The translations under genes were made by a program, and so were the position numbers. Positions 2,190 to 38,783 of a stretch of 64,000 bases of DNA are shown here, in pieces (position 1 is the stretch's first letter; each line of letters starts with the position of its first letter). The stretch comes from Flectonema sp. DT1601 (lineage: Eukaryota): assembly GCA_964019425.1 (NCBI GenBank), contig OZ025783.1:1116001-1180000 (forward strand), given 5' to 3'. The notes under the pieces are model-generated. The model ran no database searches and had not been told where the DNA came from. It saw nothing but the letters and a program-made list of their open reading frames with translations.

Positions 2190-3950
2190 AAAAAGGAATT
2201 CCGGTGCGCGACCGTGGAGAGAGTTGTTTGTCAACTGTAATCAGTACAGAAGAACACGACATGTATAACGCTGCCTATTAAAATTATAAAATGATTAAAT
2301 CATTTTTTTAAGTTGTAAGCAACATTTTTTTTCATTGAAAAAAAAAGAAAAAACGAGAAGGGAAAAAGAAATCTCATCTAAAAAACACTGCTGGAAAATC
2401 TCGCAGTGTTCGTAACTAAACGAAATAAAGAATGATTGAAGCCAGGCGATGCACTAAAGATTAACTGCATTACGAAAACTGTAAAGCAGATAGTAGAGTG
2501 CTTAACAACTACCACAAACTATTTAAATGTATGTATGTTTTTTTTTTTTTTTTTTTTTTTTTTCTCTTTCTTTTCGGGGTAATCAACAGACGTAGATAGC
2601 ACCTGAAGAGCCACACCTAAAAGAGGAGGAAAAAACGTATTTTGATAAGATGAACCAGCCAAGCATCTTAGCTTAGATCATGTTGCTCTCGTAACTGAAA
2701 AAAGAAATTGAACTGCAAGTAGCAGAACAAACAATGCACAGGGTCTGTGATGGGTTTAAAAGGAGTAACTTTTTTCGTTCTTTTGTTAAGAACTGAAAAC
2801 GTGACCCTTTTATTTTTATTTCTATTTTTTTTTTAAGGAGGAAGCAGTGTGATGATTTGATCAAAGTATCTAAAATACTTGTTGTACACATTCAAGTCAG
2901 CAAAGAGGAAGGAAAAGAATCCAAACGAGTGACACGACTATTTTCTGAATTGCATGGCTTAATAAAGCTAAATACAAAATACTTGAATTGAAGGGGGGAA
3001 AAAACTCGCAAAGGAGGAGAAACACAGCAACATCTTACAGCATGAACAAAAGACGTTACACAAGAGCATTGGGAGGAATTCGTAATGGAAGCACCCAACG
3101 AGAAATCTTAGATGCGAAATATAATAATAAGAGAAGTATTCAACTTATCAACTGTAATTTGTACAGAAGAAATAGTGATACGACTACACGAGGCAATGAA
3201 GGAGATACACATTTTTTTTAATTTTCTCTCTCTTTTCGGGGTAATCTACAGACCTGAAGAACCACATCTAATAGAGGAAAAAACATATCCCGATAAGGTT
3301 TGAGCGAAAATTTGATACTGGATTATACTGTATTATAATGTATTATCAAGGCTCAAAGGAATAACAATCTCTCGGACAATCTTGACTGTCAGTGGCAGCG
3401 TAGTAAATGACTGCAAATAAATAATGCCAATGTAGACGTGAACATAGTTGAGCGCCACTTGCCTATGTTACCGTAACAGTCTTTTGTTCCTTGGGAAGTG
3501 CCCTAAACTTGTCTACTTCTATGGTGGATAGCACGCACAGTCTCCCGTTCCTGCCCAGACCTAGGCTTAACGTGTAACGGGGGGTAAATTAATACTTTGG
3601 GGGAGAAAAATGAACTGCAAGTCGCAGAACAAACAATGCACAGGGTCTGCGACGGGTCTATAGGTTACCTTTTTTTTCGTTTTTTTGTTAAAAACCGAAA
3701 AATAGCAATTTTATTTTTTATTCCAACGTCGTGATTCAAGTTTTTTTTTTTTTTTTTTCAAATTCATGGCTTAATGAAGCTAAACAAAAACTGAGAAAAA
3801 AAAAAAAGAAGAAAAAAAAAAAAAAAGATACTCAGGGGAATTAAATATGTAACGGAAGGGGAAACACGGTAACATCTTACAGCATGAACAAAAGACGTTA
3901 CACAAGAGCATTGGGAGGAATTCGTAATGAAGCATTCAAAGAGATGTCTC
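2190..3950. repeat. Diverged tandem duplication, two ~0.9-kb non-coding units (about 2190-3100 and 3100-3950)
   Basis: Collinear shared blocks: tcttttcggggtaatc (~2570/~3231), tgaactgcaagt.gcagaacaaacaatgcacagggtctg (~2709/~3611) and an identical 59-nt block at 3029-3087 = 3871-3929. Outer boundaries are approximate. Confidence 0.8.
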
Positions 3951-6900
3951 AGATGCATACAGTGGATTTATTATCAATCGTAAATAAAAAAAACACAATA
4001 ATAATAAAAGGGGGATGGGGAAAACTAACTTGTGCGAAGAGGGTACTTAATTCGCCTTTTGTAAATGACTGAATCTAGAAAAAAGTTAGCAACTTGATTT
4101 TGCTTGACAGTTAAAAGAATACCCATCATCAGTCTTACAGGATTAATTATGACGATCTATTTTTATTTATTTTTGTTACTTTGAGGGAAGGTGAGAGGCA
4201 AGTATGACAAGAGAGCAAACCCTCGGAACCAGCAACTAAACATCATAAGTGTTAAGCAGGTTTTCCAGATCTTGCCATACCCGTCGCCATAGCGAAGATA
4301 AAAAGACCAAAGGATGTATCAGCGTCTTCGGTTTTTCCAAAAGACGACTGCTCGTCCTTCTAATTAGTAACGATGTCATGAAACAAGCTGATGACTGATA
4401 AATGTGATTGATTGTTCAACGTAGTGGTAAAAAGAAAGTATCCGGTGTGGTTGGGACCTTTAAGGTTCCTTTATTGTACATATCCCTGTTCGGGAAGCAA
4501 AATTAAAGGTACTAGATCAAATCAAGCCCTAAATTAGTAACCCAACCGATAAGTGTATTTATTTAAGAAATAAATACTACTGAGGGACATAGTCCACTCC
4601 AGCCTCCTTCCACGCGGTGACGTGGCCGATAAGGAGGTTTTGAAATGTCTCACTGTATTCTTAATAACAAGTGATTAGCATTTGCTTTTACTTTTTAAAC
4701 GTTCCTCGGGCTAGGAAAACAAATACGAGGCCAACTCAAGATAGTGGAATTGGTCTTGTAGTATGTGAGACTAGGCTAGGTAGAGAAAACAAGAATAAGA
4801 AAGTCTGTTCTTCCTTCCACACGAAGTGGACTTTATAGGAAGTAAAGTTATCATCAGTAACAAGACGAGCAGTGCTCGACTTCTTAAAGTGTTTTATTTT
4901 ATTTTCGGAAAGGATTGGGACTAAAAATAACATACATGTCCAACATAAGTGGACTTGCTTAGCAGGGTTAGGTTTTGAAGGTGACCACGAGGGACTGAGT
5001 CCACAAAACAATTCCATCCACATTGTGGACTACATTGGAAGTTTGATCCCCTTCATAGTAATTGCTAGTTAGTAGGTCCGCGAGTCCAACTGGCCGAGCC
5101 CCAATACTACGGTAGTAGATTGAACCTAATCCCGGAGGATTATTTTGTTGGTTTCGGAAAGAAGCATACAAGATCTTGTTGTTTGTATTGTGTGATTGAG
5201 TTAAAAAAAAAAGGAATACAAGAGACTGAATCCCCCCAACTACTTCCTCTACTCTTGGGTAGAATAATCAGAAACTTGAAATTCGTGAACAAGAAAAAAA
5301 GCAAGAAGAAAACATCGGTCAGTATATTTTCTTGGAGCGAATGTTCCGTTACCTCTTCAAGCCTGCTGCCTTTGAGTGAGATTCCAGTCAGACGCAGCCT
5401 AGGCCTGAAGAGAAACATAGCAAAGGAATAACTAAAAGTAAATCTTAATAAGATCTGAACTCAATAAATACGTCGAAACGGTAAATCGAATATCGGGCGA
5501 GACCTTTTGCCCGCCAAGCGATAATCGCAGCTGACAAGAACTAAAAGAATGGGTGGAGATGGTGAGGGAAATCGTGATCACGAATCACTAAAAACAAAAA
5601 CAAATAAAAGAAAAGCTGCCTGCCGGCAGCTGTTGTAAACGTAATCTAAAACAACGATCGAACTGACGCGTCGTGTATAAAATACAAAACTTCTGTTCGT
5701 CAAAAAAAAAGAAAAAAGAAAAAATGTAAACATGATGGTTATCCGTTATGCTAAAAGATTGCAAAATAATCAACAAAAAGAGCGGTGGGGAAAGGGAGAG
5801 GATTTTTTCCTCCAAGCTTATTTTTCTTAACTAGTCTTCACCTACTGCTACACAAATGATATGAATTTCTCAACAATGGGACCCGGCGGGTGGGTTTCAC
5901 TAGTCCGCAAAGCCCCTCAATCGATTTCATAGCACCCAGAGTACGGCTGAGTATGGCTGAGTGCCTGTTTTCTTTCCCAAAACCTAAATTATTTTTTTTA
6001 TTTTTCACTTCTTGTTTTGATTAAAAATAAAAACGAAAAAAAAAAAAAAAAAAGAATAAAGAGAGGGGGGATAAAACATCAAAAAGAAAATAGCAAACTG
6101 TACTTTAAGAATTATAGTAAAGTGTATTTTGTGCGCAAATAAAAAAAAGGGCTAGAAAGAACCACCCAGCATTAACTGGGTTATTCAGAGGAATGAATTT
6201 GTGTTTGTTCTGTTTTTTTTTTTTTCGTTATTGCTTTTCAATGGAATTGTCTTCTCACAATGGTTCACGATTGCAACCCTACCTACTGTGCTGCTTGAGT
6301 AGATTGACATTCCGCAATAGAATAACAATTTAGGGAAGGTAGTAGCGCAACACGGAAGGCAACATGCTTCGTTCAAGTCTTGTGGTTTGATTCTCTAATA
6401 AATGCAAGAAAAGAACTACTAGACTAGTAGAAGGAAGGACTGAATGACGAGGAAGATTTCTGAGCAGCAGTCGAGTTCTATGCGAACCCCAGCAACTCAT
6501 TCACCCTTCGCATGCAATCCCTTACAAGACGGTAAGAACATTCTACCAAAAAGGGGAAAAAGTGGAACGCAAGGAATAGAAAAGTAGGAAATATAATTTT
6601 GGCATTAACAAAATCGGAAATTAGTTAACACTAATTATATTTTGTTCGTGTACGAAATCGTAAGCCAGATTAGCTGAGACAGTCAAAGAAAGGTTCACGT
6701 CTGCTCTCCCAGAAAGTGTTTTGTACCTTATTAGTTGCAAAGAATGGGCAAGAAAGGAAACAAGGCAAACTAACGATTAACAATAAAATAAAAAAGAAAG
6801 AAAAAAAAGAAATTAGCTTTGATAAAAAAGGTTAATAAAATCACGTAGAGCAACCCTGCGAAGACCAGCAAGAGTCAAGTAGTTCTTCCAGACATGATTC

Positions 6901-7115
6901 GCAATAACTAAATTGTATGCTAAGCAGCTATTTACCAATGCACAGGAAGGAGAGGTATAACGTAAAGCAAATTGCTAAAACCGCAGAACTGTTTTGCTCT
7001 TTCCGAAACTGACGACTTGCCGCGCAATTGTTGCTAATTTGTTATAGTTTAGATAGTACATGATTATTTAAAAAATTACATTTAAGAAAACAAAATAAGT
7101 CAAAACATTAAATAA

Positions 7116-7188
7116 ATTGTTCTGCTGTTCCGAAGAACACGTGTAGAAAACGTAGTTTCAGGGGGCCATAATCTTATACTATTTGTCC
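7116..7188. repeat. Short dispersed repeat, with a second copy at 58123-58189 and a fragment near 44275
   Basis: attgttctgctgttcc...acgtagtttcagg...taatcttatacta.ttgtcc is shared between loci 51 kb apart. Confidence 0.7.
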
Positions 7189-10100
7189 TTATTCCAAATT
7201 TCTTGTAAATAAGTTTCAAAAGTGGTTCTTAACGTAAGACGTGTGGTATAGTTGGATAGATTTATTACTTGACTTTTTAAGTAGAACGCAAAAAAAAAGG
7301 ACAATGGGTAGCGAAGAAGAGAAAAAAAGGGTAATTTGATACTGCATTCTTAAGCTCAAAGGGGTGAAGAAAAAAATTGTTTGACACATTACAAAAAATA
7401 TCACATACGACCACAGTAATTATTACTATAGACTTCTTTTTTTTTTTTTTTCCCACTAATTTTTTTTCCATCAATGGAATTTATAAATATTTTTTCGAGA
7501 AACCGAAGCACTCTTACCCCTATTCTCTCATCCTTAGTGCGAAGTGGAAGTAAGTCGGTCATATCTGGGGAGACCGAGCTACCGCGTTGACAGCTAGCTT
7601 GGGTTTCGTGAATGGAGGGGAAAGAGATAGACAGCAAACTCTAGACGTGAAAGGCGAAGTAAGGGAAGGGGGAAAATATTTTAATAAAATTATAAGAAAG
7701 AAAACGATTTTAAAAAAAAAAAAAAAAAAAAAAAGATGAATAATAAGTTCGAGCGTAGAAAAAAATAAAACCCGATGACAAAACATAATAGGGATCTGGC
7801 CACACATACCTCGTTGCGAACCCTAAGGAAAGCAACCTTGAAAGTAAGCAGCACGAGATGAAGAAAGAAAGGGATAACAACGATTAATAGATAGTTGGAT
7901 AATATGTTATGAGCGTTATCGAATACCGAGGGGAGAAAGAAAAAAATGAATGATTGAATAAAAAAAAATAATAAAAAGACAGCGGTAACAATAGCTCAAC
8001 CAAAACATACAATAGAACGAAAGAAGGCCACCCAACGTGAGGGGTACACAAAAAGAATGGTATCCCTGCACATCACAGAGCCGAAGACAAGAAAGTAAAA
8101 AAATTTTAAAGTTTTGATTCTTTTTTTTGTGCGCACAAAAAACTGCGATCTACGAAACCGCTTAACAGGAAACTCTCACTCACTCACTCACTGAACATGC
8201 TACTAACTACATTCAAATCTCGACAGCGCAACAGCATTTTCATGCTGCAGCCACACTCATAAAACCTGAGGATAACTCAAATTTAAAACAAGGTATGGGT
8301 TGGGACTCAAAAAGCAAGAGAGAGGCTGCCTTAAGACAGTTGAAAATTTAAGGACAGACTTCCCTTTCTTTTTTTTTCTTTTCAAAAGCCTCAAGGTTTG
8401 GCTTTAAAGCAATACAGATACGAAAATAATAATTATTTGCCAGGACCAATTAACTAACATAATCAGCAAAATCATCCGCGTGTTATCCAACATAAGAAGG
8501 CGAGACAAGCGCGCACGAAGCACCTTTGCTGAGGTAAGAATATTGATGCGTGTTCGTGGTTGGCGACTAAAAAAAGGTTTGATTTTTTTTTTTTGTGTAG
8601 TATAACATGCCTGACATCAGCTAGAACTATACCAGAGCACGGAGATCACTACAAAGATTTATTTTTATTCTATTTTTTTTTTTTTTTTTCGTTCTTCTCA
8701 AACAATACAAAATAACATTAACCACACGTTGAAGTGTTAGATATGTGGATGTGAATCTTGTCTGTGAAAAATTCTTGGAAGAAATTAAAGAAGAAAACAC
8801 CCCCACACCATTTGCAGGCGGGGTTTGCTGGAGTTACAAGAATGTAAAAAGAAAGAAAAGGACCAAGACATGTTGTCTCAGTTTGAAATTTATTTCGAGT
8901 GCTACTCGAAAAGGGTACAACAATAACAGAGGAATAACAACCGCGAAAATGCGAATCCTCAAAAACCCTGACAGACGGGAAAGGCGTTCCTTCCCCCGAC
9001 CACTGAGCTTCGAGTCCTTCGCAAATTTCTGACATTTGATACGACGAGGACTTCAAATATTTTGAACATCAGAAGCCTCCTGAAAGCTTTTATTTTTACG
9101 GTTTTTCCGTATGCAAGGTTCCTCAAACAACTAAATCAACAGTGTGACAAGAAGTAATGTACTAAAGTAACCCTCAACAGAATGTCGATGAGGCGCTCCT
9201 TGCCAATTACTCAGTTTTCTGATAACGATACTTATTTCCGAACTCTCTCCTTACGGAGCTACTTAGTTTTACAAAAAAGATATACTCATATAAATAACAG
9301 TGATGCTACATAATTGAATTTGCAAACAGTAGCCGCAAGAAATCACTATTATCATGAACACGCAATATGGGCAGCCTTTGTAGCCAATGAGTCAAGCAAG
9401 AAAAACAAAACTCCATCAACACGTTTGTATTGGCGGAGGATTAAGTTTTCCCCGACTGTTTTCTAAACCCACAAATCAATTTTAATTTTAGGAATATAAG
9501 TTAGTATAAGGTGTTAGTACTTTTGAGGGGGGGCGGAGAAAAAAAATTTTCTCTTTCATGCAAGGGAACTGAAGAGGTATTCCTCTTTGTTTCACCCAAT
9601 GATGATTTTTCTTCTTTTTTTTTTTTTTTTTTTAAATTTCTTCCAGTAAAGGACAAACGAATATCCGTATCAAGTTTAAACGGGTTGATAGATACAGAAG
9701 TCTATTAGCATATCGAGCATCACTCACTGATACCGCAAACTAAAGAGCATCTGGTTAGCAGAGCTACGAGGTAATTTAGTGAAATAAAATTGTTTAAAAA
9801 GATAATTCACAGGTAAGCTGTTGCATGATATAAAAAGGGGGGGGAAATACAAAAAAAAGGACTGAAGACAACAACATTCCAAAGAGGGACTCCTCCAAGG
9901 AGTAGTAATTGAGAATAATTCAAATTCATAACAGATGGGGAAAATTTATTTTTAAAAAAAAAAAGAAGAAAAAAAAAACTGACTGAAAAGAACGAGTCGT
10001 TAGTAGCAGCGCAACGAGTGAGTTGTTTTTGATTTGTTTCTTTTATTACTGTTGAGCGATTCTATACCATTTGGGGGTGTCAATAGCACCCACTTTTCTT

Positions 10101-11020
10101 TTCTTTTTTCATAATTACATAATAGGTGCTTTCCCTATGACGGATCGAAAACCCAATCACTGAAAGCATCTCTGATCTATTTTTTTTTTTCATTTCTTTT
10201 TAAGAAAACCAGCAGAGGGCTCTAACTACGAACACACAACAAGAACACGAACCAAAGAGAGAATGCGATTCTGGTATTGTTGTGCGCAGCGAACACATCA
10301 AAAACTGGTAGCCATTTATTTTTTATTTTTTATTGTCATTTTCCAATCGCTCAAATGGAGGGATAGATTCTCACCATCACCGTCACAAGTATCACACAGG
10401 ACGCAGCTTTTGTCTAACAAAAGTCTTCATCGAAGAATTGAGTTCATACACATTATAAGAAATCCTAAAGTAAACAATCACACTGCAGTACAGCAAAGAT
10501 GAAATAAGAGCTGTTTTTTTTATCAAATGCAGAGTGATTGAGAAGACTTAACGTAATGTGAAAAAGCTGTTTGAATACACAAACAGAGGTATCGAAGTAT
10601 TTTCAATTTCTTCGTTAAAAGAACTATGTTATCAGAACAACAAATGTCATTGTCAGTGTGAGGGGGGTGGGGAAGGTGCAGAAAGGAGAGTTTGTTATTA
10701 CTTTAATTTGTCATTATTACTTTAGGAAGGGAGAGACAAAGGTAAACTACATTCAAAGCTGTCATCCGACTTGAACACTAAAAAATACTCGGAAGGCAAT
10801 TTTGATATATTCCTCGCTGAATAAATAACAAAACTGCCAGAAGTGAAGAGGAGAGAGTTCACCGGGTACACCTACAGTTCAAATGAACAACAGCTTAGCA
10901 CATAAATTCCTTTACTACATTATAACATAACGTGTAATTGATATTATCATCGTTTTAGAAATACGAAATAAAGGATTTATAACTTTATTACCACATCTCC
11001 CATCCGCAAAATGATTGCAC

Positions 11021-11479
11021 CTACTCTGAGACAACAAACTTTGCCAAGTCTGATGGTGAGACGAATGTTTCCCATTCGAGGTCATTAAGAAATCGTACTT
11101 CGAGTCTGTTCAGTTCTTTTGCTTCCATTCCGAAGCTGCTTGCGTAGTAAGAGTTGGTAGCTAAGTCCATGCAGTCGCATTGGTACTTTGTCGCGACAAC
11201 CAATGCACTTACCAAAATACGATGAACTGATAAAGATGTTACTAATAATCCTTTCTTTACAGCTCTCTGAATGTAAAGAGCAGCCATTACGACAACTACG
11301 TCTGGTGCCTCTGACGTTCTCTGCCACCATCTGATCACCTGAAGAAGTGGTGACTTTGATGCAGCACGTCCATCGTAGTACGTAACCTCTCTCGGGTTCT
11401 CAGCGTTTACTTTATCTCCAATCTTAGCAAGCTTTGTGAACATTGAAGCAATATCGGTGTCAAGAATGGTCATCGACAT
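11021..11479 (-). CDS. PHO80/U-type (kinetoplastid CYC2-like) cyclin, copy 1
   Basis: 152 aa. Cyclin-box motifs AALYIQR, SVHRILVSALVVATKY, NSYYA..FG...KELNRLEVRFL..LEW. Confidence 0.9.
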   Translation of the reverse strand: MSMTILDTDIASMFTKLAKIGDKVNAENPREVTYYDGRAASKSPLLQVIRWWQRTSEAPDVVVVMAALYIQRAVKKGLLVTSLSVHRILVSALVVATKYQCDCMDLATNSYYASSFGMEAKELNRLEVRFLNDLEWETFVSPSDLAKFVVSE

Positions 11480-13701: not shown

Positions 13702-14160
13702 CTACTCCGAGACAACAAACTTTGCCAAGTCTGATGGTGAGACGAATGTTTCCCATTCGAGGTCATTAAGAAATCGTACTTCGAGTCTGTTCAGTTCTTT
13801 TGCTTCCATTCCGAATCTGCTTGCGTAGTAAGAGTTGGTAGCTAAGTCCATGCAGTCGCATTGGTACTTTGTCGCGACAACCAATGCACTTACCAAAATA
13901 CGATGAACTGATAAAGATGTTACTAATAATCCTTTCTTTACAGCTCTCTGAATGTAAAGAGCAGCCATTACGACAACTACGTCTGGTGCCTTCGATGTTC
14001 TCTGCCACCATCTGATCACCTGAAGAATTGGTGACTTTGATGCAGCACGTCCATCGTAGTACGTAACCTCTCTCGGGTTCTCAGCGTTTACTTTATCTCC
14101 AATCTTAGCAAGCTTTGTGAACATTGAAGCAATATCGGTGTCAAGAATGGTCATCGACAT
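13702..14160 (-). CDS. PHO80/U-type cyclin, copy 2
   Basis: Same motifs as copy 1; differs from it at 3 residues (L/I, E/K, S/R). Confidence 0.9.
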   Translation of the reverse strand: MSMTILDTDIASMFTKLAKIGDKVNAENPREVTYYDGRAASKSPILQVIRWWQRTSKAPDVVVVMAALYIQRAVKKGLLVTSLSVHRILVSALVVATKYQCDCMDLATNSYYASRFGMEAKELNRLEVRFLNDLEWETFVSPSDLAKFVVSE

Positions 14161-22151: not shown

Positions 22152-25100
22152 TTATCTACGCAGCGCTTCTTGTTCTGCTAATCTTTGCTGAAGGACTCGT
22201 TCATCAATTGTGTTGGCGACTATAAATCTGGTTACGAATACTTCTTTCAGTTGACCAAAGCGATGTGCTCTTCCTACTGCTTGTTTCTCTAAGGCTACAT
22301 ATCTGTCTAAGGATGGAGCTAACAGAGGATGAACAAAAACAACATTTCTTGCTTGAGTTAAGTTCAACCCAGAGCTTCCTTCATCTAAAGGTAGTAATAA
22401 TATCTTAACATCTGGCTTTTGGAATGCTTCTATTGCCGACACTTTGTCGTTGTCAAATAAGGTTGAGAACGTTGCCTTGCATCTCCTGAGCTCATCAACT
22501 ATTAAGCTGTGTAGTTCCCGAAACTGAATGAATGCCTGTTTTGTGTTTATTGATATTTTATAATTTACTATTACTATTTAACAACTATACACCAATACAT
22601 ACCAATACTTTCTCATCTTGGTAACTTGCAGTACCAACAATAAAGTGAACTACTTCCTGTATTTTAGTTGGAGTGTTGTCAGGTAAATCTTCTAATTGAG
22701 ATCGCAAGACGATATCAGCGTTCTTGACGAGTGCACTGCATCCCCGGACAGGACATGTATCGGCATTTTCTGCAGAAGATAAAAACTCTGAAGAACATCC
22801 ATAATGTCCACAACATGTTGTAACACAAGGTTCAGATGGTATTGAATCAGTATGAGCAATAGTGTGGACATCACAGATCACATCACTGCGGTGGATGTTG
22901 TGACTTTTTTGCAAGAAACGCAGACTCCGAACTCTAGTCACATATTCTCGAGTACTTGATCGAAGGATGTGAACTTTTTCGTTTAACTCAAATTCAGTTG
23001 GTGTTTTTGTCAACGTCAGTTTAGTCTTTTCAGCTTCTGAAATCCTGGCCTTCAACCAATCTTTAACTTCGATATCTTCACTTGAGGCAGCGTCGTACCA
23101 GTTCTCCATCTTACCCCAGAAGTGTGGGTTTTTTAATTTTAATCGAATTCTGTTTCGCATTTGGGTCGCTTCTTTTAACAAATGAACGACACGCTCTGCG
23201 CATTGTTTCAGTTGAGATTGCCTGATACCCACAATATTCTTGTACGATTGCATTACACTCTTGTCTTCATCGTACAAGTTATATGTACAAGCGAGTTTAA
23301 CGAGAACCTCTTCAGGAGATGATGAGGTTCCCAAAAGTTGTGCAAATCGTTTCTCGCGATCATTTCCATCGCCGTTCCCACTCCAACGCTGGCCGGAATA
23401 TTGGGACACGTCAAGTGATTTAAAGAGAGATTCGAGTTCAGAATATATTGAACTGTGTGTGTGGGACATCCTTACAATTTGAGAATGAAAGCTGATCGGT
23501 AATTCATCAATCTCAGCGATGTTTTGCCTTACAAATATATCAATAAAACTCTGAGCTATAATATTACGATGAGTGTACCAAGCAGAGGATTTGACTCTCG
23601 ACATGGCATGGAATCTCTCAGCATCAGTTAAACTTTTCTTATTAACATTTTCAACAAGAGGCTCACCGATATGAACGCCGAGCAATGTAGCCATTTTTGA
23701 TACGTCGTCAAAGGTTGTCACACAAGGTGTTCCGGATAATAACCATATTCGTTGCCTACGAAGGTTACTTATCACAGCAAGCTGCTCAGTGTTGTCTACA
23801 ATAAAAGAAAACTCGTCAACGATAATTCTTTTCCACAATATCTGTTCTATCTTCATTGCTGCCTTCTCAGCATCTGTCAAGGCCGAGTAAAGAAAAACAA
23901 ACCTTCTTCCCGTAGCGTCAGCAAATTGTGAAGGCATTCTGGATCTAGCAGAGAGTAAAGTTGTTGTTATAAATACGACTGAGACACTGGCCAGTCTGGA
24001 AAGTGATTTCGAGTTTAAGTCTGAAAGAGTCCTTAGAACGATGTAGTCGAGAGTGTTTCCTAAAAACTTACGAAGCTCTTGAGGCCATTGAGATATTAAA
24101 TGAGAAGGTACAACTACCAGAGTTGCTGCACTCTTCACAATTGGATTTGATTCATTCGACGAGGCGATTGATGTGATGCTTTCGGTGTCTTCGTCTGACT
24201 TCGTTGCTGCGATCAGCGCCAAAGAAATTACTGTTTTTCCATATCCAACTTCATCAGCCAACACCCCACCGCACACGATTTTCGGTATGGTAACTCTTCC
24301 TTCGACTAGGATGTTACAAAATAAATCGTTTTCAACTTCCTGCTGTAAGAACGGAATTTGTTTTGAATCTTCTCTTTCAATCATCCACGACAAGGAACGA
24401 AGTTGTTCCTTTCGTAGAGTCTGATCGTCTTTGAATTGTGGTGGTTTTGAGTATTCAGGATTCCCTCTATTTGAGAGAAGCTCTTTAACTGTAAATGGAA
24501 CAAAGCCAGTGCTGGTATCACTAACCCGTAGAGCTCTCCAATCATAATTCATTCTCTGACCATCACATGAAATCATTTTAGAAGAGGAGGTGTGAACTAA
24601 CATTACAGGATTTATATTTACTCTCAGATCACTGTGAGTATCAGATATCCTTCTAAGTTGTGCTGAAACCCCCCTCGGTTTTCTCTTTAGAGCCATTTCA
24701 TATTCTGCAGCCATCTCTCCCGACTCGTATGGGTGTCCTTTTGAAGTCCATTTTATATCAGGTTGAGGTGGAGAGCAGGCAGCACATTCAAACTTTGATG
24801 CGGATGATATATTTTGCCAGTTGGAGAATTCTTGAGGGAACGACATGGAAGCGAGTACCCAACTAATGTCACTCCCAGAGCAGGGAAACCAAAGATCGCT
24901 GTGTGATATTTGATTCACCTGACACTTTGCAATAGTAATTGACAAAGAGCAATTATTATATTCAAGTGTTGGTACCTTCTTGGGTAATGACAGATTATCA
25001 AATGGTGTGATTACTTCTAATGATCCTGGTAGGTCTACGAAACGACCAAGTAGTGTGCATTCAATAATCTCTGATTCTACACTACCAGGTTTCCATCCTT

Positions 25101-28100
25101 GTTTACACAACAATATTGGATCAGTTGGCTCTCCAGCTGACATCCTCGCTGAGTAGCTGTCAGCTATTTCACAGCTGTCATTTTTCGGTTCGCCCATGAT
25201 GTCAGGATTTAGGTATAAAAATGATTCTTTATCGTGTTCAAGGTTGCTGTTATCTCTTTTATACAACATTCCTATTGCAGCACCACATTTAGGAAGCCGT
25301 TGATACACTCCATCAGCTGCCGTCATTTCTCTCTTGTCTCCATTTTTTAACACCAGCGTATTAAATATTGTTCTGTTTGATACTTCAGTTAGACCAAGAG
25401 AGACTTGCCAAGAATCACCAGGATCAGACCCTGACACAGTCATAGCTAATGTGTCATGTACAGGTATTCTTAACTTGATAACTCCATTGGTGTAGTTAAA
25501 CGATGTTGAGTCAGTTGGATAAATACAGTCGACTGTAAGAACAGGTTTCTTATTACCAACAATAGCGAAGAATGGATGTTTGCATGCTTTAGTAGTGTAC
25601 AAAGACCATCTACCAAGAGGATGGTTTTCATTTATTGATAACGTTGCTCGTAAAGAACCCGATTCAGATATGTACGAAGCAGTCCATTTACGAGATCTAA
25701 CAACTCTGACGTAGCGTAAAGGAGATTCTAAATAATGCTGAAGTTCTTTGACGTAGATTTTCCAGTTATCGCAATCAACTCTGGCATTGAAATCCTCATG
25801 GCTATCATCTAACACAAATCTAAATCTCTTTGGTAGTATAGTCAACAACACATCATGTACTACAGAGAAGTCAAGTCTAACTAAATTCTCAATCGGTTCG
25901 AATACGTGTTGTGGATTTCCAGCACATCCAACACAGGAAGTGTAATTACAACTTTTACACTTCACAATTTGATTATTTGATAAAGTCCCACTCTCACAGC
26001 TGCAGTGCATCGCAGCTTTGTGAAATGATAAAAAGTAATCTAATCCTTTATTCTGATTACATGACTCGACATCTTTTATAAAAGTAGATTGAAAGTCTGT
26101 TGGTTCAGTGCTATCGAGTACAGGTAGTTCTGTTCTTCTGTTGATTGGATCACTATTTTTAGTATTTTTAACCGTAAGAGGGAAAGCTGTAAGTATCGAT
26201 GAGATAATACAAGCACCAACAACAGTACTACTCATTGCATTCCCAGCTAAGTCTGCCAGCTGACGATCAGTTTCACGAGTAAGAACCAAATCATCGATTG
26301 GAATCCCTTGTAAGAAAAGTGTTTCCGCTCCGATAATTGGTCCTCCTCTGTTAGAAATGTATGCAATCATAGTTGGAGTGAGACATGGACAGATTCCACG
26401 TGCTGATGAATTCCCTCTATCAACATTCTGTGATAGATTCCATACTCGACATCTCCAATGAGCATCATCAGGATCACTACCATTACCACATCCTAAGTAT
26501 CTCAGATCAATTAAATCATTTACACGATTTGGTTGACCAGCAATCCACTGCTGCCAACTCCAATCAGGTGGTTTGACTCCGCCCTCATTCCAATTTGTGA
26601 CTGGTCGCTTTGGTCCTAATCCTCCAGAATTCCTCTCCTTTGCATGTCGAAGTTCACATCGACCCCAATCAATCTTTTTACGAGCTAACTTTACAGTTAC
26701 TTTATTCTTTGCTTGTAAGACTCGCGGATCATCATCAGGAAGGAGGAAGTGATCGAGTACTGGACCTGAAAACTTTTCTAATGATGCCACCATGTTACCC
26801 CACGCCTGAAGCTTTGATGGAGTTCCATCTAATGCAGCACAAAGATAACCACGTTGACGAGTTTGAGGAATGTAATAATTCTTCGTATCGAGACGTAGAT
26901 ATCCCGCGTGGTATCTCTTACCGCCGGGCAGCTTGAGTTGATTAAAAAGGTTGGCCATTTCATCCCAAGGAGCGCCTCTGACATTCTCAAGGATAACAAT
27001 CTTTGGAGCGTATTTCTTTACGTAGTCGAGCATTCCTTTAAATGTTTGACCCGACTGACCACCTTCATCAATACCTTTTCTGAATTTATTAATGGTACTG
27101 AAATCCTTACAAACAGTTCCTGCAATAACAATATCAACCTGTCCAGGGACGGGTACTGAACTACCGTAAGCGGTGGTTGCCTTTGGATTTGCGAGTTCTC
27201 GAATGTCGCGAAAAAGAAGTTTTGGATGAAAGTTTCTCTCAATATAAGCTTGTTTATAAGGTTCTATTTCACAACTAAACACGTGGTTGAATATATGAAC
27301 ACCAAAAGCCTTCTCAAACATCTTCAGTGCGAGTAAAGGAGACTCGGTACCTGAACACATCGTCGCAACTTCTATCGGTCTTGAAATGCCTTTTAAATTC
27401 CTAATCAATTGAGGGTGAAGTTTTGTTAATTTGGCTGCCATGTCAGAAAACATGTCCTGAGGCTGTGAGATAACATTCTCTAGCAACAGAGGATTGTGTT
27501 TTAGGATTTCTTTTTTTTGAGCTTGAGTCATCTGTGAATTCGGTTTTATAAGTGAGGAACCGACTACTGGTTGCTTCTCTACTTGTTTGTTAGTCTTTTT
27601 TTTAACTTGCTTTTTAACTTGTCTTTTAACCTTTGGTCTGGAATCACTACTACTACTACTGCTATCACTGGTAAACCCACTAATGTAACTGCTAGAGCTA
27701 ACTGTTGAACTGATAGTGCTCCAGTCGTCATAGTTTTTCTTTACGTTTTGTTTTTTAGCTGGTTTTTGTTTTTTAACTGCCGGTCCCTTAGTTGGTGCCT
27801 GCTTTTTCTTCGTTGGTGGTAGAGGCTTCTTCACTAGTTTTGATTTCTTCATTGGTTTCTTAGACACCAACAACTCTACAGAAGAACTTGATATTGAAGA
27901 GGAAGAACTGGAACTATCAGAAGTAGTTTCAGTGGGGCTTTCACTGGTGTCTTCTTCCGATAAGACATTTAGAAGTGCGACACATCCTGACACAGAGCGT
28001 CCAGGAACAACACCAAACCTAACCTTTCCAAAAGGCATATTCGTCTTACTCTTAATTTGATAACAAACATAAGTTGGTTTACCGTCGACCATTATCAGAC

Positions 28101-29115
28101 CACTTAGCATGAATTTAGGTGGTGTTATCACAACAAAACTAACTGGTCGAACACCTCCAATACATCTGGCAATTCGAGGACAGATGATTTCAAAAAGTCC
28201 AGGTGGAGGTTCATATTGTTTCAATTCATCTGAATTCATCGTGTGAGGAATTATCTTTGCAATCTGACTGAGAGATAGCCTAGCTCTAAGTTGATCAATT
28301 TGAGACTGAGTTAATGGAGGAGGACTTTTACAAACATCGTAATCACAACGACAAGCAGCCCATTTTAGTAAAGTAGCGACAGCTCCTACAAAATCTTCAG
28401 AAAACCCTTCCACAGTATTTTGATCTATTACCTCACAGGCAGGTTTTGGAATCGCAGCATCTTTCCAAGCAGATAGTTCTGCTCCCCATTCACCTTGGCG
28501 GTTATTTTTGATGGCAGGTCCGTATTCCATCGCTGATTTATATTCACTTGATACTCGATACCAATTCTTAAAGAGAGATGACTGCACCCATATACCTCCC
28601 CAGGTATCTGTGTGTGGTTGTTGATCAGAAACCTTCCTCACGTGGAATTGAACTGGAGCTGGTTCACCAGGAACAAGCTGACCCATAAAGCAACCCTGAG
28701 CAGTACCACTGACAGTAACACTTTTGTTATTTTGTAGAGCGTCTGATATGGTTGAGTAACCTTCAACAAGAACTCCTTCGATTTTGAACTGAGGATTGAA
28801 GAGATGTCTATTAGGACCTTCCTCACCTACTAATTCAGCTACTGTTTTAGCGTAAGCAATACCAGCGCAGTCTTTACCACATTCATCTAGTAAGCAGAAT
28901 GGATCTGCGTCGCGGAGGATGTCAAGCTGACAGGCATCCTCTTCAGGAACTATTTCCATTAAAAGTTTGATTGCCTCTCTATGAGAATCATCTAGTGCCA
29001 TTGGAACTGGATAGTTCAACCTATCTAGGATCTCAATCAACAGTATCATGCATCCTGTTTGCAGCTGAACTTGTGACTTCAAGTCTGCCGACTCGGTCAT
29101 ATTATCGACCTCCAT
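22152..29115 (-). CDS. DNMT5: DNMT5-type cytosine-5 DNA methyltransferase-SNF2 ATPase; join(22603..29115, 22152..22535)
   Basis: MTase motifs ATMCSGTESP, SCEIEP, IAGTVCKDFS, LENV, PQTRQRGY, LAGNAMS. SNF2 motifs GGVLADEVGYGKT, IVDEF, LLSGTP; RING-like CCGHYGC..CPVRGC. A GTATGT...AAAACAG intron at 22536-22602 joins EKVL|AFIQF to the helicase-C exon (GLNLTQA, QAVGRAHRFGQ). Confidence 0.93.
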
Positions 29116-29383: not shown

Positions 29384-30478
29384 CTACAAGGCTTTTTTAC
29401 TTCTCTTAATACCTGACATTACAGCAGGTCCTACCTCTTCGGATGCTGTAGGTGCAGGTGCCTTTCTCTTTTCCTTCTTTCCCCGGTGGGCCTTAAAGTT
29501 TCTAGTACCCATGGTAGCTAATTCCTTAGACTGATGACCAACGTGAATAGTTCCCTTAACACCGTGCATGTCTTTTGATATGTTCTTTTCATTCTTCTGA
29601 ACTTGTCCTCTTGGAACCTTACACGCGTGACTGTTGTGTTTTGTTTTGTTTTGTTTTTCGAATGAATCTAAACTAAAAGGATAAATAACTAAACACTCAT
29701 ACCGAAACAGTTGAGGTGTTGCGAGTAAACATCTACGAACATCAAAATCAATATTTGGACCAGCGTCTTCTAATTCAACTTTTGGAATCTTCTCTCCTGA
29801 TTTCTTAAACGCAACGTTGTAATGACGAAATAATATAACAGCATTGTTTATTGTACTTCCATCATCAGATACGGTGATTTCCTTACTCACGTCTTTTGGT
29901 TTGAGGGTTACGGAAATCAAGTGATCAAGACCTCCCAAATGTACCTTAGTGATAACCTGTCCTCTGAAGAAGTCAACTAGTAAGTTTTGAACTCTCTGTA
30001 AAGTTGGGTGAGTTGAAAACATCTCACCCTGGAAATGCATTATAGGTTTACTTCCGACAGCTATACGAGCATCACGCATGGCTTCATATTTAGTAACTCC
30101 CAGTTCTAACATGTCTAATAGTTGGTAATCAAAGTGCCTTCCAAGAGTAATGTTGTGAGGCCTCTTTTGCTTGCTGTGATTTCCAAAACAAAATAACGAG
30201 CAGTCATTTTTAAATGACAAGAATTCTAAATGTTTTGATTCTTCAAATGGTCTGAACTCGTTCTTTTTTGTAAATTTAACTGCGTTGGGTTTCTTCAATA
30301 AAAACAAGTCAGTCATCACATCTTGAGCTACTTGACTGCATTTTTCTCCTTTTAAAAATAAAGCAGATTTCGTGTTTTCTACAAGCTTAGGAAGTACTTT
30401 TTTCAACGCTACTTTTGATCTGTGATTCTTTGGGGCTCCGCGGACGAGACCGCCGGAGGTAGTGTGGCCGCTTACCAT
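29384..30478 (-). CDS. RPF2: Ribosome biogenesis Brix-domain protein RPF2, with a 72-nt in-frame intron at 29631-29702
   Basis: ENTKSALF, LKKPNA, PFEE...LEFLS.KNDCSLF.FG.HSK.KRPHN, DMLELG, VELEDAGP. Removing GTATGA...ACACAACAG deletes a non-homologous stretch (LFR|HACKVP). Confidence 0.92.
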   Translation of the reverse strand: MVSGHTTSGGLVRGAPKNHRSKVALKKVLPKLVENTKSALFLKGEKCSQVAQDVMTDLFLLKKPNAVKFTKKNEFRPFEESKHLEFLSFKNDCSLFCFGNHSKQKRPHNITLGRHFDYQLLDMLELGVTKYEAMRDARIAVGSKPIMHFQGEMFSTHPTLQRVQNLLVDFFRGQVITKVHLGGLDHLISVTLKPKDVSKEITVSDDGSTINNAVILFRHYNVAFKKSGEKIPKVELEDAGPNIDFDVRRCLLATPQLFRYECLVIYPFSLDSFEKQNKTKHNSHACKVPRGQVQKNEKNISKDMHGVKGTIHVGHQSKELATMGTRNFKAHRGKKEKRKAPAPTASEEVGPAVMSGIKRSKKAL

Positions 30479-31162
30479 TATTAATGTGGAGTGGCTGAAA
30501 TAAAAAAAATTACTTGAGAAACTCTGGTGTAGTTCCCAAAAATGAATCGACTTAACTATCGACATACCTGTGACTGAAATAAAAAGAACTACTTTTTTAT
30601 CAACTCAAGAAGTGATTGAATTGTCGGGTGACCCCGTCATTTAATCTCTCTTTTTTTCTTATATCCCTTCTAATGGGCAAAGTGAATGGGGTAACTCAAG
30701 GTATGTACTAAAAGAGTAAATAATTGTTTTACAATCTCGTGTGTTTTTTTTTTTTTTTTTTTTTTCCCCTGTCTGCATCTTGGGGAAATTCTAGTTGCCT
30801 AGCTAAGAACGAGAAAACAGGTTCACTGTGACGGTGTCATCTACCTCAACATGTCGTTATAGTTATTGGTTATTATGACCTCAGTAAATAGATAAAGTAT
30901 TGAGGTAGCAGATAAACTTTTTTTCAAAAATATAATAAATAAATGAAAGTTCCTCAACCTTTCAACTAGTCATAAAGTACTAAAGAGAAATAATAAAATT
31001 AACTTCCGTACAAAGAGACTTGTCAAAAAGGGAAGTGACTTAAAGTATCTATGATTAGGTGAACCTCTGACAACCATACACTTGTTGATTCATTGACTTC
31101 ATACTACTGACTCGGATGTCGTACTTCAGATTGAGAAGAACGAGATGGAGACAACACGAAAT

Positions 31163-31482: not shown

Positions 31483-34400
31483 TTAACTCAGACTCGGAAT
31501 GTACGGAGCTGGCGGGATCGAACCGGCCAGAGTATCTTTTATCTGTTTGGGTTTTGTGGTATTTTCCATTCTTTTCGACATCAAAGGAATTATTAAAGTA
31601 GTCTAACCCCAGCCATTGACCTCCTTGTGTATGATGATGTGATAATGCAGAAGAGGAGAAGCAGTTCGTAAATAGTAATTCTAGCCGAGTATGTTGCTAA
31701 CTTGAGCTTAAAGAACATTTTTATAAACGAACAAACAACCATTACGAGTGCTGCAGGGTCACATACCCCAGTAGCTAAAAACGGGGGATTCGTCTCCCTG
31801 TCAGGGCGATCGGACTCTTCCGCCGTCATGACATACGTTCGAAGTTGTTTTGATTGTCCGGGTAATAGGACTAATACTACCCCAGCCATTGACCTCCTTG
31901 TGTATGATGATGTGATCATGCTTGAGGCTGGTTGTACCGAGGCATTGTGATTAGTACTTTAGTGGCGTAATTCACGAGGTGTGTAAAAGAAAGCTTTTGA
32001 GGAGAATCAGTAAATTGAAAACATCGTCGAAGCACACGGCTCAGGTCTTGAAACACATTTAATTTAATATCATCAGAGAAAGGTGGAGAACGGAGACTGA
32101 CAAAACACCACAAGTGACACCCGAAGGTGATTGAAGTGATTGAATATGATGCAAAGAGAGAGCGTGTCAAAATGTTTAATTTAATACAAAGCTTCTCAAG
32201 GAAAGAATAGTAATTCTAGCCCCAGTCATTGACCTCCTTGTGTATGATGATGTGATCATGCTTGAGGCTGGTTGTACCGAGGCATTGTGATTGCGAGAGT
32301 GTGTGGATGTGTGTTGCGCGTGGGTTGCGCAACTCACACAAAGTGTCAAAGAAGACATCAGAAAGAGGAGAAACAGTTCGTAAAATAGTAATTCTAGCCT
32401 CAGCCATTGACCTCCTTGTGTATGATGATGTGATCATGCTTGAGGCTGGTTGTACCGAGGCATTGTAATTGAGAGTGTGCGTAGATGCGTGTTGTGTGGG
32501 GGCTGCGTAATTCACAAGGTGTGTCAAAGAAGACATCAGAAAGAGGAGAAACAGTTCGTAAAATAGTAATTCTAGCCTCAGCCATTGACCTCCTTGTGTA
32601 TGATGATGTGATCATGCTTGAGGCTGGTTGTACCGAGGCATTGTAATTGAGAGTGTGCGTAGATGCGTGTTGTGTGGGGGCTGCGTAATTCACAAGGTGT
32701 GTCAAAGAAGACATCAGAAAGAGGAGAAACAGTTCGTAAAATAGTAATTCTAGCCTCAGCCATTGACCTCCTTGTGTATGATGATGTGATCATGCTTGAG
32801 GCTGGTTGTACCGAGGCATTGTAATTGAGAGTGTGCGTAGATGCGTGTTGTGTGGGGGCTGCGTAATTCACAAGGTGTGTCAAAGAAGACATCAGAAAGA
32901 GGAGAAACAGTTCGTAAAATAGTAATTCTAGCCTCAGCCATTGACCTCCTTGTGTATGATGATGTGATCATGTTTGAGGCTGGTTGTACCGAGGCATTGT
33001 GATTGAGAGAGTGTGTGGATGCGTGTTGTGTGTGGGTTGCGAAATTCACAAGGTGTGTAAAGGAAAGCTTTTGAGGAGAATCAGTAAATTGAAAACATCG
33101 TCGAAGCACACGGCTCAGGTCTTGAAACACATTTAATTTAATATCATCAGAGAAAGGTGGAAAACGGAGACTGACAAAACACCACAAGTGACACCCGAAG
33201 GTGATTGAAGTGATTAAATATGATGCAAAGAGAGAGCGTGTGTGAAAATGTTTAATTTAATACGAAGCTTCTCAAGGAAAGAATAGTAATTCTAGCCCCA
33301 GCCATTGACCTCCTTGTGTATGATGATGTGATCATGCTTGAGGCTGGTTGTACCGAGGCATTGTAATGGAGAGTGTGTGTTGCGTGGGGGGCTGCGTAAT
33401 ACACAAGGTGTGTCAAAGAAGACATCAGAAAGAGGAGAAACAGTTCGTAAAATAGTAATTCTAGCCCCAGCCATTGACCTCTCTGTGTATGATGATGTGA
33501 TCATGCTTGAGGCTGGTTGTACCGAGGCATTGTAATGGAGAGTGTGTGTTGCGTGGGGGGCTGCGTAATACACAAGGTGTGTCAAAGAAGACATCAGAAA
33601 GAGGAGAAACAGTTCGTAAAATAGTAATTCTAGCCCCAGCCATTGACCTCTCTGTGTATGATGATGTGATCATGCTTGAGGCTGGTTGTACCGAGGCATT
33701 GTGATTAGTACTTTAGTGGCGTAATTCACAAGGTGTGTAAAAGAAAGCTTTTGAGGAGAATCAGTAAATTGAAAACATCGTCGAAGCACACGGCTCAGGT
33801 CTTGAAACACATTTAATTTAATATCATCAGAGAAAGGTGGAAAACGGAGACTGACAAAACACCACAAGTGACACCCGAAGGTGATTGAAGTGATTAAATA
33901 TGATGCAAAGAGAGAGCGTGTCAAAATGTTTAATTTAATACAAAGCTTCTCAAGGAAAGAATAGTAATTCTAGCCCCAGTCATTGACCTCCTTGTGTATG
34001 ATGATGTGATCATGCTTGAGGCTGGTTGTACCGAGGCATTGTAATTGAGTGTGTGCGTAGTGTGTAGGGGCTGCGTAATACACAAGGTGTGTCAAAGAAG
34101 ACATCAGAAAGAGGAGAAACAGTTCGTAAAATAGTAATTCTAGCCTCAGCCATTGACCTCTCTGTGTATGATGATGTGATCATGCTTGAGGCTGGTTGTA
34201 CCGAGGCACATCATTAATAAAGATGACATTAACATTCCATGATAAGGAAAGAATGAAGTACTAGTCCTGAAGTTGAACAACACACCTGTTTCAATTCAGC
34301 TATTGCGAGAAGGTATGCATTGGCCTGGTCAACTTTTTCTTCAGATGAAAGATTCTTTCGCTCGTGTTCGAACCACGTTGACCTGTTTGGTAAAATGTGA

Positions 34401-35940
34401 AGTTGCTTCCACAAAGAAGACATCAACTGTCTATAAACAATAAAACATACTGGAACTGAGTGAGAATTCCTTGCAGACGCTTTGAAAGATCGACATTTGA
34501 TTTTTGAAGCCTATCAAGTTGAGCCTTTGGTGTCATCCCTGACATTGTTGATAACACTGGTGATGCTGATTGTTTAGTTGCTGAAGGTTTAACTTCCTGT
34601 GGTACTGGTACCAATGGTGCAGGAGCGCGTCTTAGTGGTGCTTCATCTGTGACGGCAACTGCGTGCCTCCGTGGAAGGAAAGCTTTGAGAGGTGAACCAG
34701 ACCAATCGACAGCTTTTTCAACAAAAACTGTCACGTCCTCTACAGGAGGATATCTCATCAAACGTTTTAACGTTCCGCTGTAGTCTCTCGACTGTAATTC
34801 TTTACTAACAAAGCTAAGCATAGCTGCTCCAATTAAAGGTAACAATCCCATCTCTAAAGGTGTTAATCCACTATCACTGTATGAGATAGTCGCACTGTTA
34901 TTAACTGAATGGTAAAGTAGTTCTGTTAGGACTGCATCCCAAAGAGGAGCGGATCCACTTATATCGAATTCTCTTATAAACCAAACTCTGAACCATCTTA
35001 ATGCGTAAACTGTTGGTTCAACACCGTGTTGATGAAGATGTTTTGCTAGTTTAGCATCATAACACGGTAAGATAGTACTCTGTAATCTTGAACACAGTCT
35101 GGTTATCGGTGTTTCTTCATCTGGATTTTTACTGCGATCTCGAACAACTTTATACCAACTCTTCAGATTTGATTCCTTTCCGTTCATTAGTCGATCGAAT
35201 AAGAAATAAGCGTCAGCTTCGATATCAGCTGTTTGTGTTGGTAACATAATCTCAAGAATATCAAGTATTTCAGGAGATATTGATTGCTTTATAGCTGGTG
35301 TTGCTGTCTTTAAAGAATGACCATCGTACCATAAAAAGTAAACAAATGAAGAGACCAAATCATGCATCCCTTGTCGATATCCAGTGTCTAAGTTCTCTAA
35401 TGAGAATGTCTTAAGAATATTGAGCATGAGAGCTCTGATTTCAGGTTTCTCGAATAGGATGTCATCACCAGACATTCTGGTGAGATCTTTTTCTATTTCG
35501 CGTTGAACTTGTTTTTGTTTGAAGTAAATACTCCATCTTGAATCTTTGTCATCGGAGAGTGGATTCTCTACCATCAACAACTCATCATCTTCATCATCGA
35601 CATCAGCATGAGGATCAACGTGATGCTTCTCTTTGTGAGAGTGATATAATTTCCGTTTTTCCATAACATCCACTTCCCATTGATCGAGAATCTCAGCTGC
35701 TGTCATTTTCTTACTCTCGGCTTTCGGAGGATGCGATACTTCACCGAGGAATATTTTCCAATATATTGATCTGATATTCGTTTTTTTCATTCTACCCATC
35801 CCTGCCCGGTATGCGTTCTCTATAGTATAATTTGAGAGAAGCTCTTCAAGCTCGGTCACCATTTCTTTCAGAAGACAGGGTCGTATCGGTTCAGGGATAG
35901 ATTCTTCATCACTGGTGCTTTCATCAAAGCGACTGGTCAT
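31483..35940 (-). CDS. TBC1D5: Rab-GAP TBC1D5-like protein; join(34451..35940, 34286..34382, 31483..31542)
   Basis: RSIYWKIFLG, NPLS....SRW, IEKDLTR, GYRQGMHDL, EADAY, YALRWFRVWF.REF, LMRYPPVEDV. Splicing yields the C-terminal motif AIAELKQ|IKDTLAGS, matching the TBC1D5 LKQIKDIL.GS motif. Confidence 0.88.
32007..32076 (-). ncRNA. Box C/D snoRNA, copy 1, with an LSU rRNA guide
   Basis: UGAUGA (C)...GUGUUUCAAGAC-CUGA (D')...CGACGA (C'-like)...CUGA (D). The 12-nt guide is the perfect complement of the conserved LSU sequence GUCUUGAAACAC. Confidence 0.85.
33081..33150 (-). ncRNA. Box C/D snoRNA, copy 2
   Basis: Boxes and guide identical to copy 1. Confidence 0.85.
33761..33830 (-). ncRNA. Box C/D snoRNA, copy 3
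   Basis: Boxes and guide identical to copy 1. Confidence 0.85.
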
Positions 35941-37703: not shown

Positions 37704-38783
37704 TCAAGAAAGGCATTTCGGACATGCGAAAACGTCCAACTGTTTCGAGGCACAGTTTACGTTACCAACAATATCATCTAGAGAGAATGTAAAAACATTA
37801 TAAGATGATTGACTTAACCAACTCGCATAAGAGTTCAACGGATCAGATCTATACCACGTCGAAGGATCCTCATGAGAAGGAGGAGGACAATTCTCTGGAC
37901 TCTGACAGAGCCCTCTGTTGATGGCTGCACAAGAATCCGCTGTTAGATTTCCATTCCGACCTCTATCATCTAAAACACATCCATAAATAGTACAACTTGG
38001 ACATCTTGCTCCCTCCATTAGCATTGGTTTAAATCGATCCATTGCCGCACACATTCCATTCACATCCTCTGCCTTCCCATTCGAAACTAAATTACACAAG
38101 TGATGAGAACTAATACATTGAGCAACACTAATATCGGATACAATCGATTTTTTAAAAGTCGGACAGGAATTATAAAAATGACTAAGCGGACACGTGTTGT
38201 AGGTCATCTTACAAAGATGATTTGGACGTCCTGGGAATGGTCCGGTTCCACTACCTAAAGCTCCAGGAGAGTTCATTAGGATGGGCAGTGCAGCAGCATC
38301 AACATAACTAATATCATAATCAACAAAAGGAGTTCTTACATTATCTGTTGAAGCTCGTCGAACTCCGAATGTAAATTCCAAAAGCTGAGCATAGTCATTT
38401 GAGGGATCATCTTGAACAGGGAACGCAGTGTACGGTTCCTGACCAAACGATACCGGATCTTTATAATATAAATAAATCCTACCAGCTGTAACTGTAAGAC
38501 TGGGTAGTACAAACTGAATGGTTTCACCCTTGGCCAATCTCTTTGATCCCCAAACGGTAGCTGGACTTCCACTTGTCACAACTGCCCACAGAGTTACTGA
38601 ACAATGATTTTTAATATTAACACATGGCATTTTACTTGGACAACTATCAAGCGTTGCTACTTCAGGTCGGCAATTGCACCGTGCCACTGCTAAGTCTGAT
38701 TCATTGTAAGCGAGTAACTCCCACCCGAATATTACAATTCCTAACGCGGTTAAGAGATATAAATATCTACTGCCACTCGGCAT
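37704..38783 (-). CDS. Secreted or membrane-anchored Cys-rich GH64/thaumatin-like (beta-1,3-glucanase superfamily) protein
   Basis: N-terminal hydrophobic segment; NIKNHCSVTLW, LLEFTF, DYDISYVDAAALPI, CAAINRG, NSYASW, FTFSLDD. Confidence 0.7.
   Translation of the reverse strand: MPSGSRYLYLLTALGIVIFGWELLAYNESDLAVARCNCRPEVATLDSCPSKMPCVNIKNHCSVTLWAVVTSGSPATVWGSKRLAKGETIQFVLPSLTVTAGRIYLYYKDPVSFGQEPYTAFPVQDDPSNDYAQLLEFTFGVRRASTDNVRTPFVDYDISYVDAAALPILMNSPGALGSGTGPFPGRPNHLCKMTYNTCPLSHFYNSCPTFKKSIVSDISVAQCISSHHLCNLVSNGKAEDVNGMCAAMDRFKPMLMEGARCPSCTIYGCVLDDRGRNGNLTADSCAAINRGLCQSPENCPPPSHEDPSTWYRSDPLNSYASWLSQSSYNVFTFSLDDIVGNVNCASKQLDVFACPKCLS

Follow-up and report, generated by a model that had tools for sequence, protein, structure and literature searches.

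The closest described systems are the AGA-box H/ACA-like RNAs of trypanosomatids; AGA-box H/ACA-like snoRNAs in repeated clusters are also found in Euglena, and in T. brucei repeated snoRNA clusters are normal. In trypanosomatids these RNAs are single stem-loops of 57–91 nt with a stem I of 5–8 bp, 1–3 unpaired nt before the AGA and 13–16 nt from the upper stem to the AGA, and an A just 5′ of stem I is a tendency (66–91%) while U is rare there (PMC2613932). Two or three sites per single hairpin have been reported in T. brucei (PMC4855143). One of its guides, TB11Cs5H1, is assigned to SSU Psi1682 (old 1710) in the context GAUUUG-Psi-U-UGGUUG, a pseudouridine detected by Psi-seq, HydraPsiSeq and MS at 57–60% (PMC10662448).

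We analyzed a window of 64,000 nt from Flectonema sp. DT1601 (contig OZ025783.1), in which a tandem array spans about 31600–34207, between a TBC gene and a Brix-domain gene (Table 1). The reverse complement of the copy at 32390–32461 folds into one hairpin of 72 nt. Its stem I is GCCUCGGU/GCUGAGGC (8 bp, nt 1–8/58–65), followed by a 5′ pocket ACAACCA (nt 9–15), an upper stem GCCUC/GAGGU (5 bp, nt 16–20/48–52) and a 3′ pocket CAAUG (nt 53–57); the AGA box occupies nt 67–69, 1 nt past stem I and 14 nt from the upper stem. The size of the hairpin (72 nt versus 57–91 nt) and the spacing from upper stem to AGA (14 nt versus 13–16 nt) lie within the trypanosomatid ranges, and the succession of 8 bp, 1 nt and AGA stands in an intact hairpin context in 10 of 12 copies, whereas the nucleotide before stem I is U, not A, in all 11 aligned copies (PMC2613932). 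An earlier note on this DNA had described a 72-nt core folding as an AGA-box hairpin, with the AGA 14 nt from the pocket and 3 nt before the predicted end; computation of the minimum free energy (MFE) structure bore out the fold, and the geometry is as described.

The minus-strand core has an MFE of −21.5 kcal/mol (z −2.56; 3 of 200 shuffles equally stable), and the plus-strand core folds comparably or better (−25.7 kcal/mol, z −2.92). Since both strands fold, folding by itself cannot pick the strand, and the minus strand was assigned because of the direction of the genes, the AGA box and the targets.

Table 1 Array copies, C/D-like elements and flanking genes, with positions in the window.
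Feature	Position	Strand	Basis or remark
RabGAP-TBC domain gene, upstream flank	34423..35940	-	domain + homologue search
Putative guide copy 1, most 5′ on minus strand	34136..34207	-	anchor motif, alignment
Putative guide copy 2, A58 variant	33966..34037	-	anchor motif, alignment
C/D-like copy 1	33761..33830	-	box C CUGAUGA, D′ CUGA 33798, D CUGA 33764
Putative guide copy 3	33626..33697	-	anchor motif, alignment
Putative guide copy 4	33457..33528	-	anchor motif, alignment
Putative guide copy 5	33288..33359	-	anchor motif, alignment
C/D-like copy 2	33081..33150	-	identical over 105 nt
Putative guide copy 6, apical G23A variant	32924..32995	-	anchor motif, alignment
Putative guide copy 7	32746..32817	-	anchor motif, alignment
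Putative guide copy 8	32568..32639	-	anchor motif, alignment
Putative guide copy 9, core noted first	32390..32461	-	anchor motif, fold
Putative guide copy 10, A58 variant	32212..32283	-	anchor motif, alignment
C/D-like copy 3	32007..32076	-	104/105 nt identical
Broken copy 11, hairpin kept	31872..31943	-	C65 deleted, AGA changed to AGU
Broken copy 12, 3′ two-thirds	about 31599..31647	-	lacks 5′ pocket and 5′ stem strand; AGA retained
Brix-domain protein gene, downstream flank	29384..30565	-	domain search

The anchor motif has 12 matches in the window, namely ten complete AGA cores, the number given in the earlier note, and beyond them two broken end copies, which are likely pseudogenes. The same note saw variation that preserves the structure. 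The variants that it listed are present, but the complete copies hold only two one-sided stem changes, both U-A/U-G, which is weak evidence; 10 of the 16 possible transitions in stem I of the core retain pairing by default, and two-sided changes were found in none of the 19 pairs among 11 aligned copies (7 distinct). One complete copy (32924–32995) breaks an apical G-C pair through G23A. The upper stem is indeed unaffected by the AAGGAGG/AGAGAGG variant, but the AG/GA swap, at nt 46–47, falls outside its 5 bp.

The array units measure 169–178 nt; three neighboring units are identical, and there are three recurring long spacers. This mosaic fits unequal crossover, by which the array likely grew; the earlier note had named dosage selection or a recent unequal crossover as possible reasons for the ten copies. 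Variable columns number 28 of 106 among the seven short spacers and 4 of 72 in the corresponding cores; much of the spacer variation traces to one divergent spacer and one indel. The view that spacers vary more than cores holds for their distal half and not for columns 1–47, which are invariant in all seven, all variation lying beyond column 47. This invariant 47-nt start (for example in 32567–32462, minus strand) is pyrimidine-rich, and in six of the seven short spacers the first AG lies ~65 nt into the spacer, as CAG. The tract together with the CAG resembles a trans-splice acceptor before each guide copy, a feature that is not in all spacers. Between the two broken copies lies a unique GC-rich island (31740–31830), for which we found no second copy in the window and no Rfam match.

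All target rRNA came from other, environmental diplonemids, not from the host of the array. A published SSU probe for diplonemids, on which the diplonemid assignment rests, served to collect it from metagenomes (PMC7970053). The probe had 83 matches, of which 23 are not rDNA and were set aside ahead of any count, leaving 60 diplonemid-type rDNA loci; 43 of these have the length needed for comparison, are 70–100% identical and form eight clusters at 90%. Full operons were delimited by Rfam, and three of them (L057, L069 and L088) were used for ranking. In one further locus, L038, the SSU upstream of the probe (region 1–400) is non-diplonemid-like, whereas the probe region and the LSU are diplonemid-like; it is probably a chimeric contig.

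A relaxed scan raised two SSU sites, A and B, with LSU sites level with or above them. The later scoring, which was chosen after site B had been seen, required an intact upper stem and two unpaired target bases. Under it, sites A and B were the top two in all three operons, both by a simple score and by nearest-neighbor energy with two pocket definitions. The energy ranking covered, in each operon, the ~100–110 U sites at which both junction pairs form; the top two sites reached −14.5 and −13.9 kcal/mol versus at most −9.3 kcal/mol for the next site. None of 200 shuffles of the L057 rRNA attained the best score with either pocket definition, and the second-best score was attained by 0 and 1 of them. 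By the simple score site B (31) exceeds site A (22), and 31 was reached in none of 300 shuffles. As a control, nine AGA-hairpin loci elsewhere in the window and unrelated to the array have one rRNA match of at least 9 Watson-Crick pairs, so a single such match means little; two sites in one register were found for the array core only among the window's AGA-hairpin loci, a set whose filter (at most two G-U pairs) left out three of the array copies. A search of the window itself for the target gave 10 matches, with 8.1 expected.

Site A is GAUUUG-U-C-UGGUUG, at L057 nt 1916, or SSU nt 1514, presumably the h36/h37 junction. It pairs with the pocket by 3 + 6 bp, and 52 of the 53 loci that cover it have the exact sequence. 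Here, in the rRNA of relatives, the pocket is complementary to the context of T. brucei SSU Psi1682. An identification of site A with the yeast snR83 site was rejected, the two being ~15 nt apart by counting.

Site B, CCAUUG-U-G-UGGUGGUGC, lies 41 nt away at L057 nt 1875, or SSU nt 1473, and is exact in 51 of 53 covering loci, the chimeric-looking L038 having G. With its UGGU side it pairs by 5 + 4 bp in the MFE pocket, and by 6 + 8 of 9 bp when the top two stem-I pairs are opened, at a cost of ~5.7 kcal/mol; in this open state the A58 of copy 2 loses one pair. The position is U in diplonemids and A in T. brucei at that distance. An ACAAUG stretch farther upstream in L057 is complementary to the strand that carries site B. 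Site B would thus lie in an rRNA helix, which we take to be SSU helix 33, and would have to be unpaired for the guide to gain access.

At both sites, in the rRNA of relatives, pairing reaches at least 3 bp on each side and 8 bp in total, which is the minimum for yeast guides (PMC6800473). In the pocket, A11 pairs at site A but not at B, and U56-G57 pair at B but not at A, so that the pocket reads as a compromise; the case for dual use rests mainly on this. We consider guidance of site A by the array quite probable and that of site B likely; that both are guided is a claim we hold with moderate confidence. The target deduced in the earlier note, CAUUG-psi-N-UGGUUGU, nearly matches these real SSU sites.

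In the Rfam scans the window has no match at the gathering threshold. The core scores 13.3 bits (E 1.6) against the TB11Cs5H1 model (RF01542), short of the cut-off of 45, and in the short-window scan it aligns with it end to end (model positions 1–71 of 71). The likeness to TB11Cs5H1 extends to the single ~72-nt hairpin, the 5′ pocket CAACCA followed by G, and the 14 nt to the AGA; the 3′ pocket begins with CAA in both and continues from its fourth base differently, reading CAAAGU there and CAAUGG here, which adds a match to a U absent in T. brucei (T. brucei sequence: PMC3273796). The two also have a predicted SSU site in common (Psi1682/old 1710), and TB11Cs5H1 too is in part tandemly repeated, within a cluster of both H/ACA and C/D RNAs, although with two copies instead of ten and with other cluster partners; the Rfam score is far below the cut-off. 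From these comparisons the core is likely the functional counterpart of TB11Cs5H1 in diplonemids and not a member of the RF01542 family, the case for orthology resting on pocket identity and the common target and not on the Rfam score. Geometry, the TB11Cs5H1-like pocket and rRNA complementarity together support the class proposed in the earlier note, and we are highly confident that the core is a single-hairpin AGA-box pseudouridylation guide.

Each of the three long spacers contains one C/D-like element of 70 nt, which is absent from the earlier account. The element has boxes C, D′ and D and a guide of at least 10 nt, antisense to rRNA, adjoining D′; this D′ guide forms 13 bp (1 G-U) with the LSU in all three operons of relatives, whereas the guide at box D matches the LSU only imperfectly. 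Antisense stretches with CUGA alone also occur by chance elsewhere in the window. By the +5 rule the D′ guide is predicted to direct Um at L057 LSU nt 704; its equivalent by counting in T. brucei, U740, is not among the listed modifications. With C/D-like elements among the guide copies, the array is a mixed snoRNA cluster of the kind found in trypanosomes. Elsewhere in the window, at 4373–4398 on the plus strand, 12 nt perfectly antisense to a conserved SSU stretch are followed by CUGA; this lies in an ORF-free region on the strand opposite the genes and could be a lone C/D guide or a chance match.

All 20 ORFs of at least 150 aa in the window are on the minus strand, which is likely the transcribed, polycistronic strand. 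The TBC-domain protein upstream of the array has its nearest homolog in Flectonema neradi (75% identity), and its other best homologs are in Diplonema papillatum, D. japonicum and Lacrimia, besides two unnamed proteins. By these homologs the contig is very likely diplonemid. The Brix domain of the downstream protein marks a ribosome-biogenesis family. Further along the minus strand, 22585–29115 encodes a protein of 2176 aa with C-5 cytosine DNA methylase and SNF2 domains, an architecture that, as we take it, resembles DNMT5. The cyclin-domain genes at 11021–11479 and 13702–14160 are duplicates, with 149 of 152 residues identical, and a glycoside hydrolase 64 (beta-1,3-glucanase) domain protein is encoded at 37704–38783, all on the minus strand. 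On the 3′ side of this gene run, ~11 kb (1–11000) are without an ORF of at least 150 aa.

We favor, with some reserve, the explanation that the array encodes a euglenozoan H/ACA-type guide related to TB11Cs5H1, which uses one pocket for two SSU uridines. The array would be read through with the polycistronic unit, and the transcript would be trimmed to ~73–75 nt, ending 3 nt past the AGA. The RNA would then assemble with Cbf5, Nop10, Nhp2 and Gar1 for catalysis at the target uridines, site A being the inherited target and site B one probably gained in diplonemids. A further-reaching version appears rather doubtful to us: that diplonemids re-tuned the 3′ pocket of the ancestral guide to serve the conserved Psi and a new one at the base of SSU helix 33, perhaps with a third Psi in the LSU by refolding, and that the tenfold expansion offsets the shared, weaker pairing.

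If the same guide modified site A alone, the match to site B would be incidental. A Psi has been measured at site A in T. brucei (PMC10662448), this site is marginally the best with the pocket unopened, and the UGGU common to both sites makes part of the site-B match free. Nevertheless, U56 forfeits the site-A pair of TB11Cs5H1 and gains pairs at site B, and a second site this good arose in at most 1 of 200 shuffles, so we regard the restriction to site A as unlikely. The opposite restriction, a guide that drifted from A to B and now modifies only the latter, draws on the 14 bp possible at B versus 9 at A, on the scores of 31 and 22 and on the mere 3 bp on one side of site A; it seems improbable, as A11 still complements site A and is mismatched to B, and yeast guides tolerate three pairs on one side (PMC6800473). 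Very unlikely, in our judgment, is an LSU uridine in GCAGAUC-U-UGGUUGUA as main or added target, reached by refolding the base of the upper stem. It offers 12 bp, tops the relaxed scan for the AAGG variant and corresponds, by counting from C1608, A1620 and G1621, to T. brucei Psi1609. That position is, however, served in T. brucei by another guide, TB10Cs4H3; the register is outside the top ten for the AGAG-variant copy, leaves 3 bp of upper stem and places the AGA at 17 nt, compared with the 13–16 nt of trypanosomatids (PMC2613932).

More radical readings fare worse. The high identity of the copies, the comparable folding of both strands, the absence of covariation and the lack of an Rfam match at the cut-off would all suit a non-functional minisatellite whose unit folds by chance, a reading to which we give very little credence in view of the AGA geometry, the pocket identical to that of TB11Cs5H1, rRNA complementarity above that of shuffles and a second snoRNA-like element in the array. 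The best Rfam score in both E-value scans belongs to snR5 (RF01252; 24 bits with E 0.31, and 20.8 bits in the short-window scan), and the yeast snR5 5′ hairpin has similar pocket words and spacing. Yet only the first hairpin of snR5 aligns, below 45 bits, and the array RNA is one hairpin where yeast has two with an ACA box, the second hairpin being absent here. Its LSU site is unsupported as well: in 10 of 13 diplonemid loci the helix-39 sequence is CCAC/UUUCUGGUAAG, which has a C at what we take, in yeast numbering, to be the modified position. It pairs by 8 bp in a non-canonical register in the relaxed scan and is absent from the top sites in the later scorings; a viral-contig scan with the helix-39 pattern gave 27 loci, none of them rRNA by its flanks. 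A snR5-type guide for the LSU helix-39 pseudouridine is thus hardly credible. The SSU 5′ end, the candidate target of the earlier note, has a negligible chance. CAACCAG is complementary to CUGGUUG there, but AGAAAC precedes CUGGUUG in all 23 covering loci (of 60), so that the modifiable position is C or A and not U, and in none of the 23 is there a partner for the 3′ pocket; the upstream spacer is without CAUUG.

Compared with trypanosomatid AGA-box clusters, the locus resembles them in the one stem-loop, the AGA, the mixed cluster in a polycistronic unit and the occasional two-target hairpins, and differs in its diplonemid host. Our literature search, which covered few subscription journals, brought up no title or abstract on diplonemid snoRNAs, and the Euglena and Leishmania catalogs may contain a closer relative or list site B among the pseudouridines. 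Guide machinery and cluster layout are ordinary and already known; what is new is a diplonemid member with a plausible lineage-specific second target. It yields two exact SSU Psi predictions for an abundant, little-studied group and, if the dual reading is true, a compact example of how the pocket of a guide acquired a further target while the rRNA changed. The array suggests that diplonemids, the third main group of Euglenozoa, also have single-hairpin AGA-box guides in repeated mixed clusters, in which case such guides would be ancestral to the phylum.
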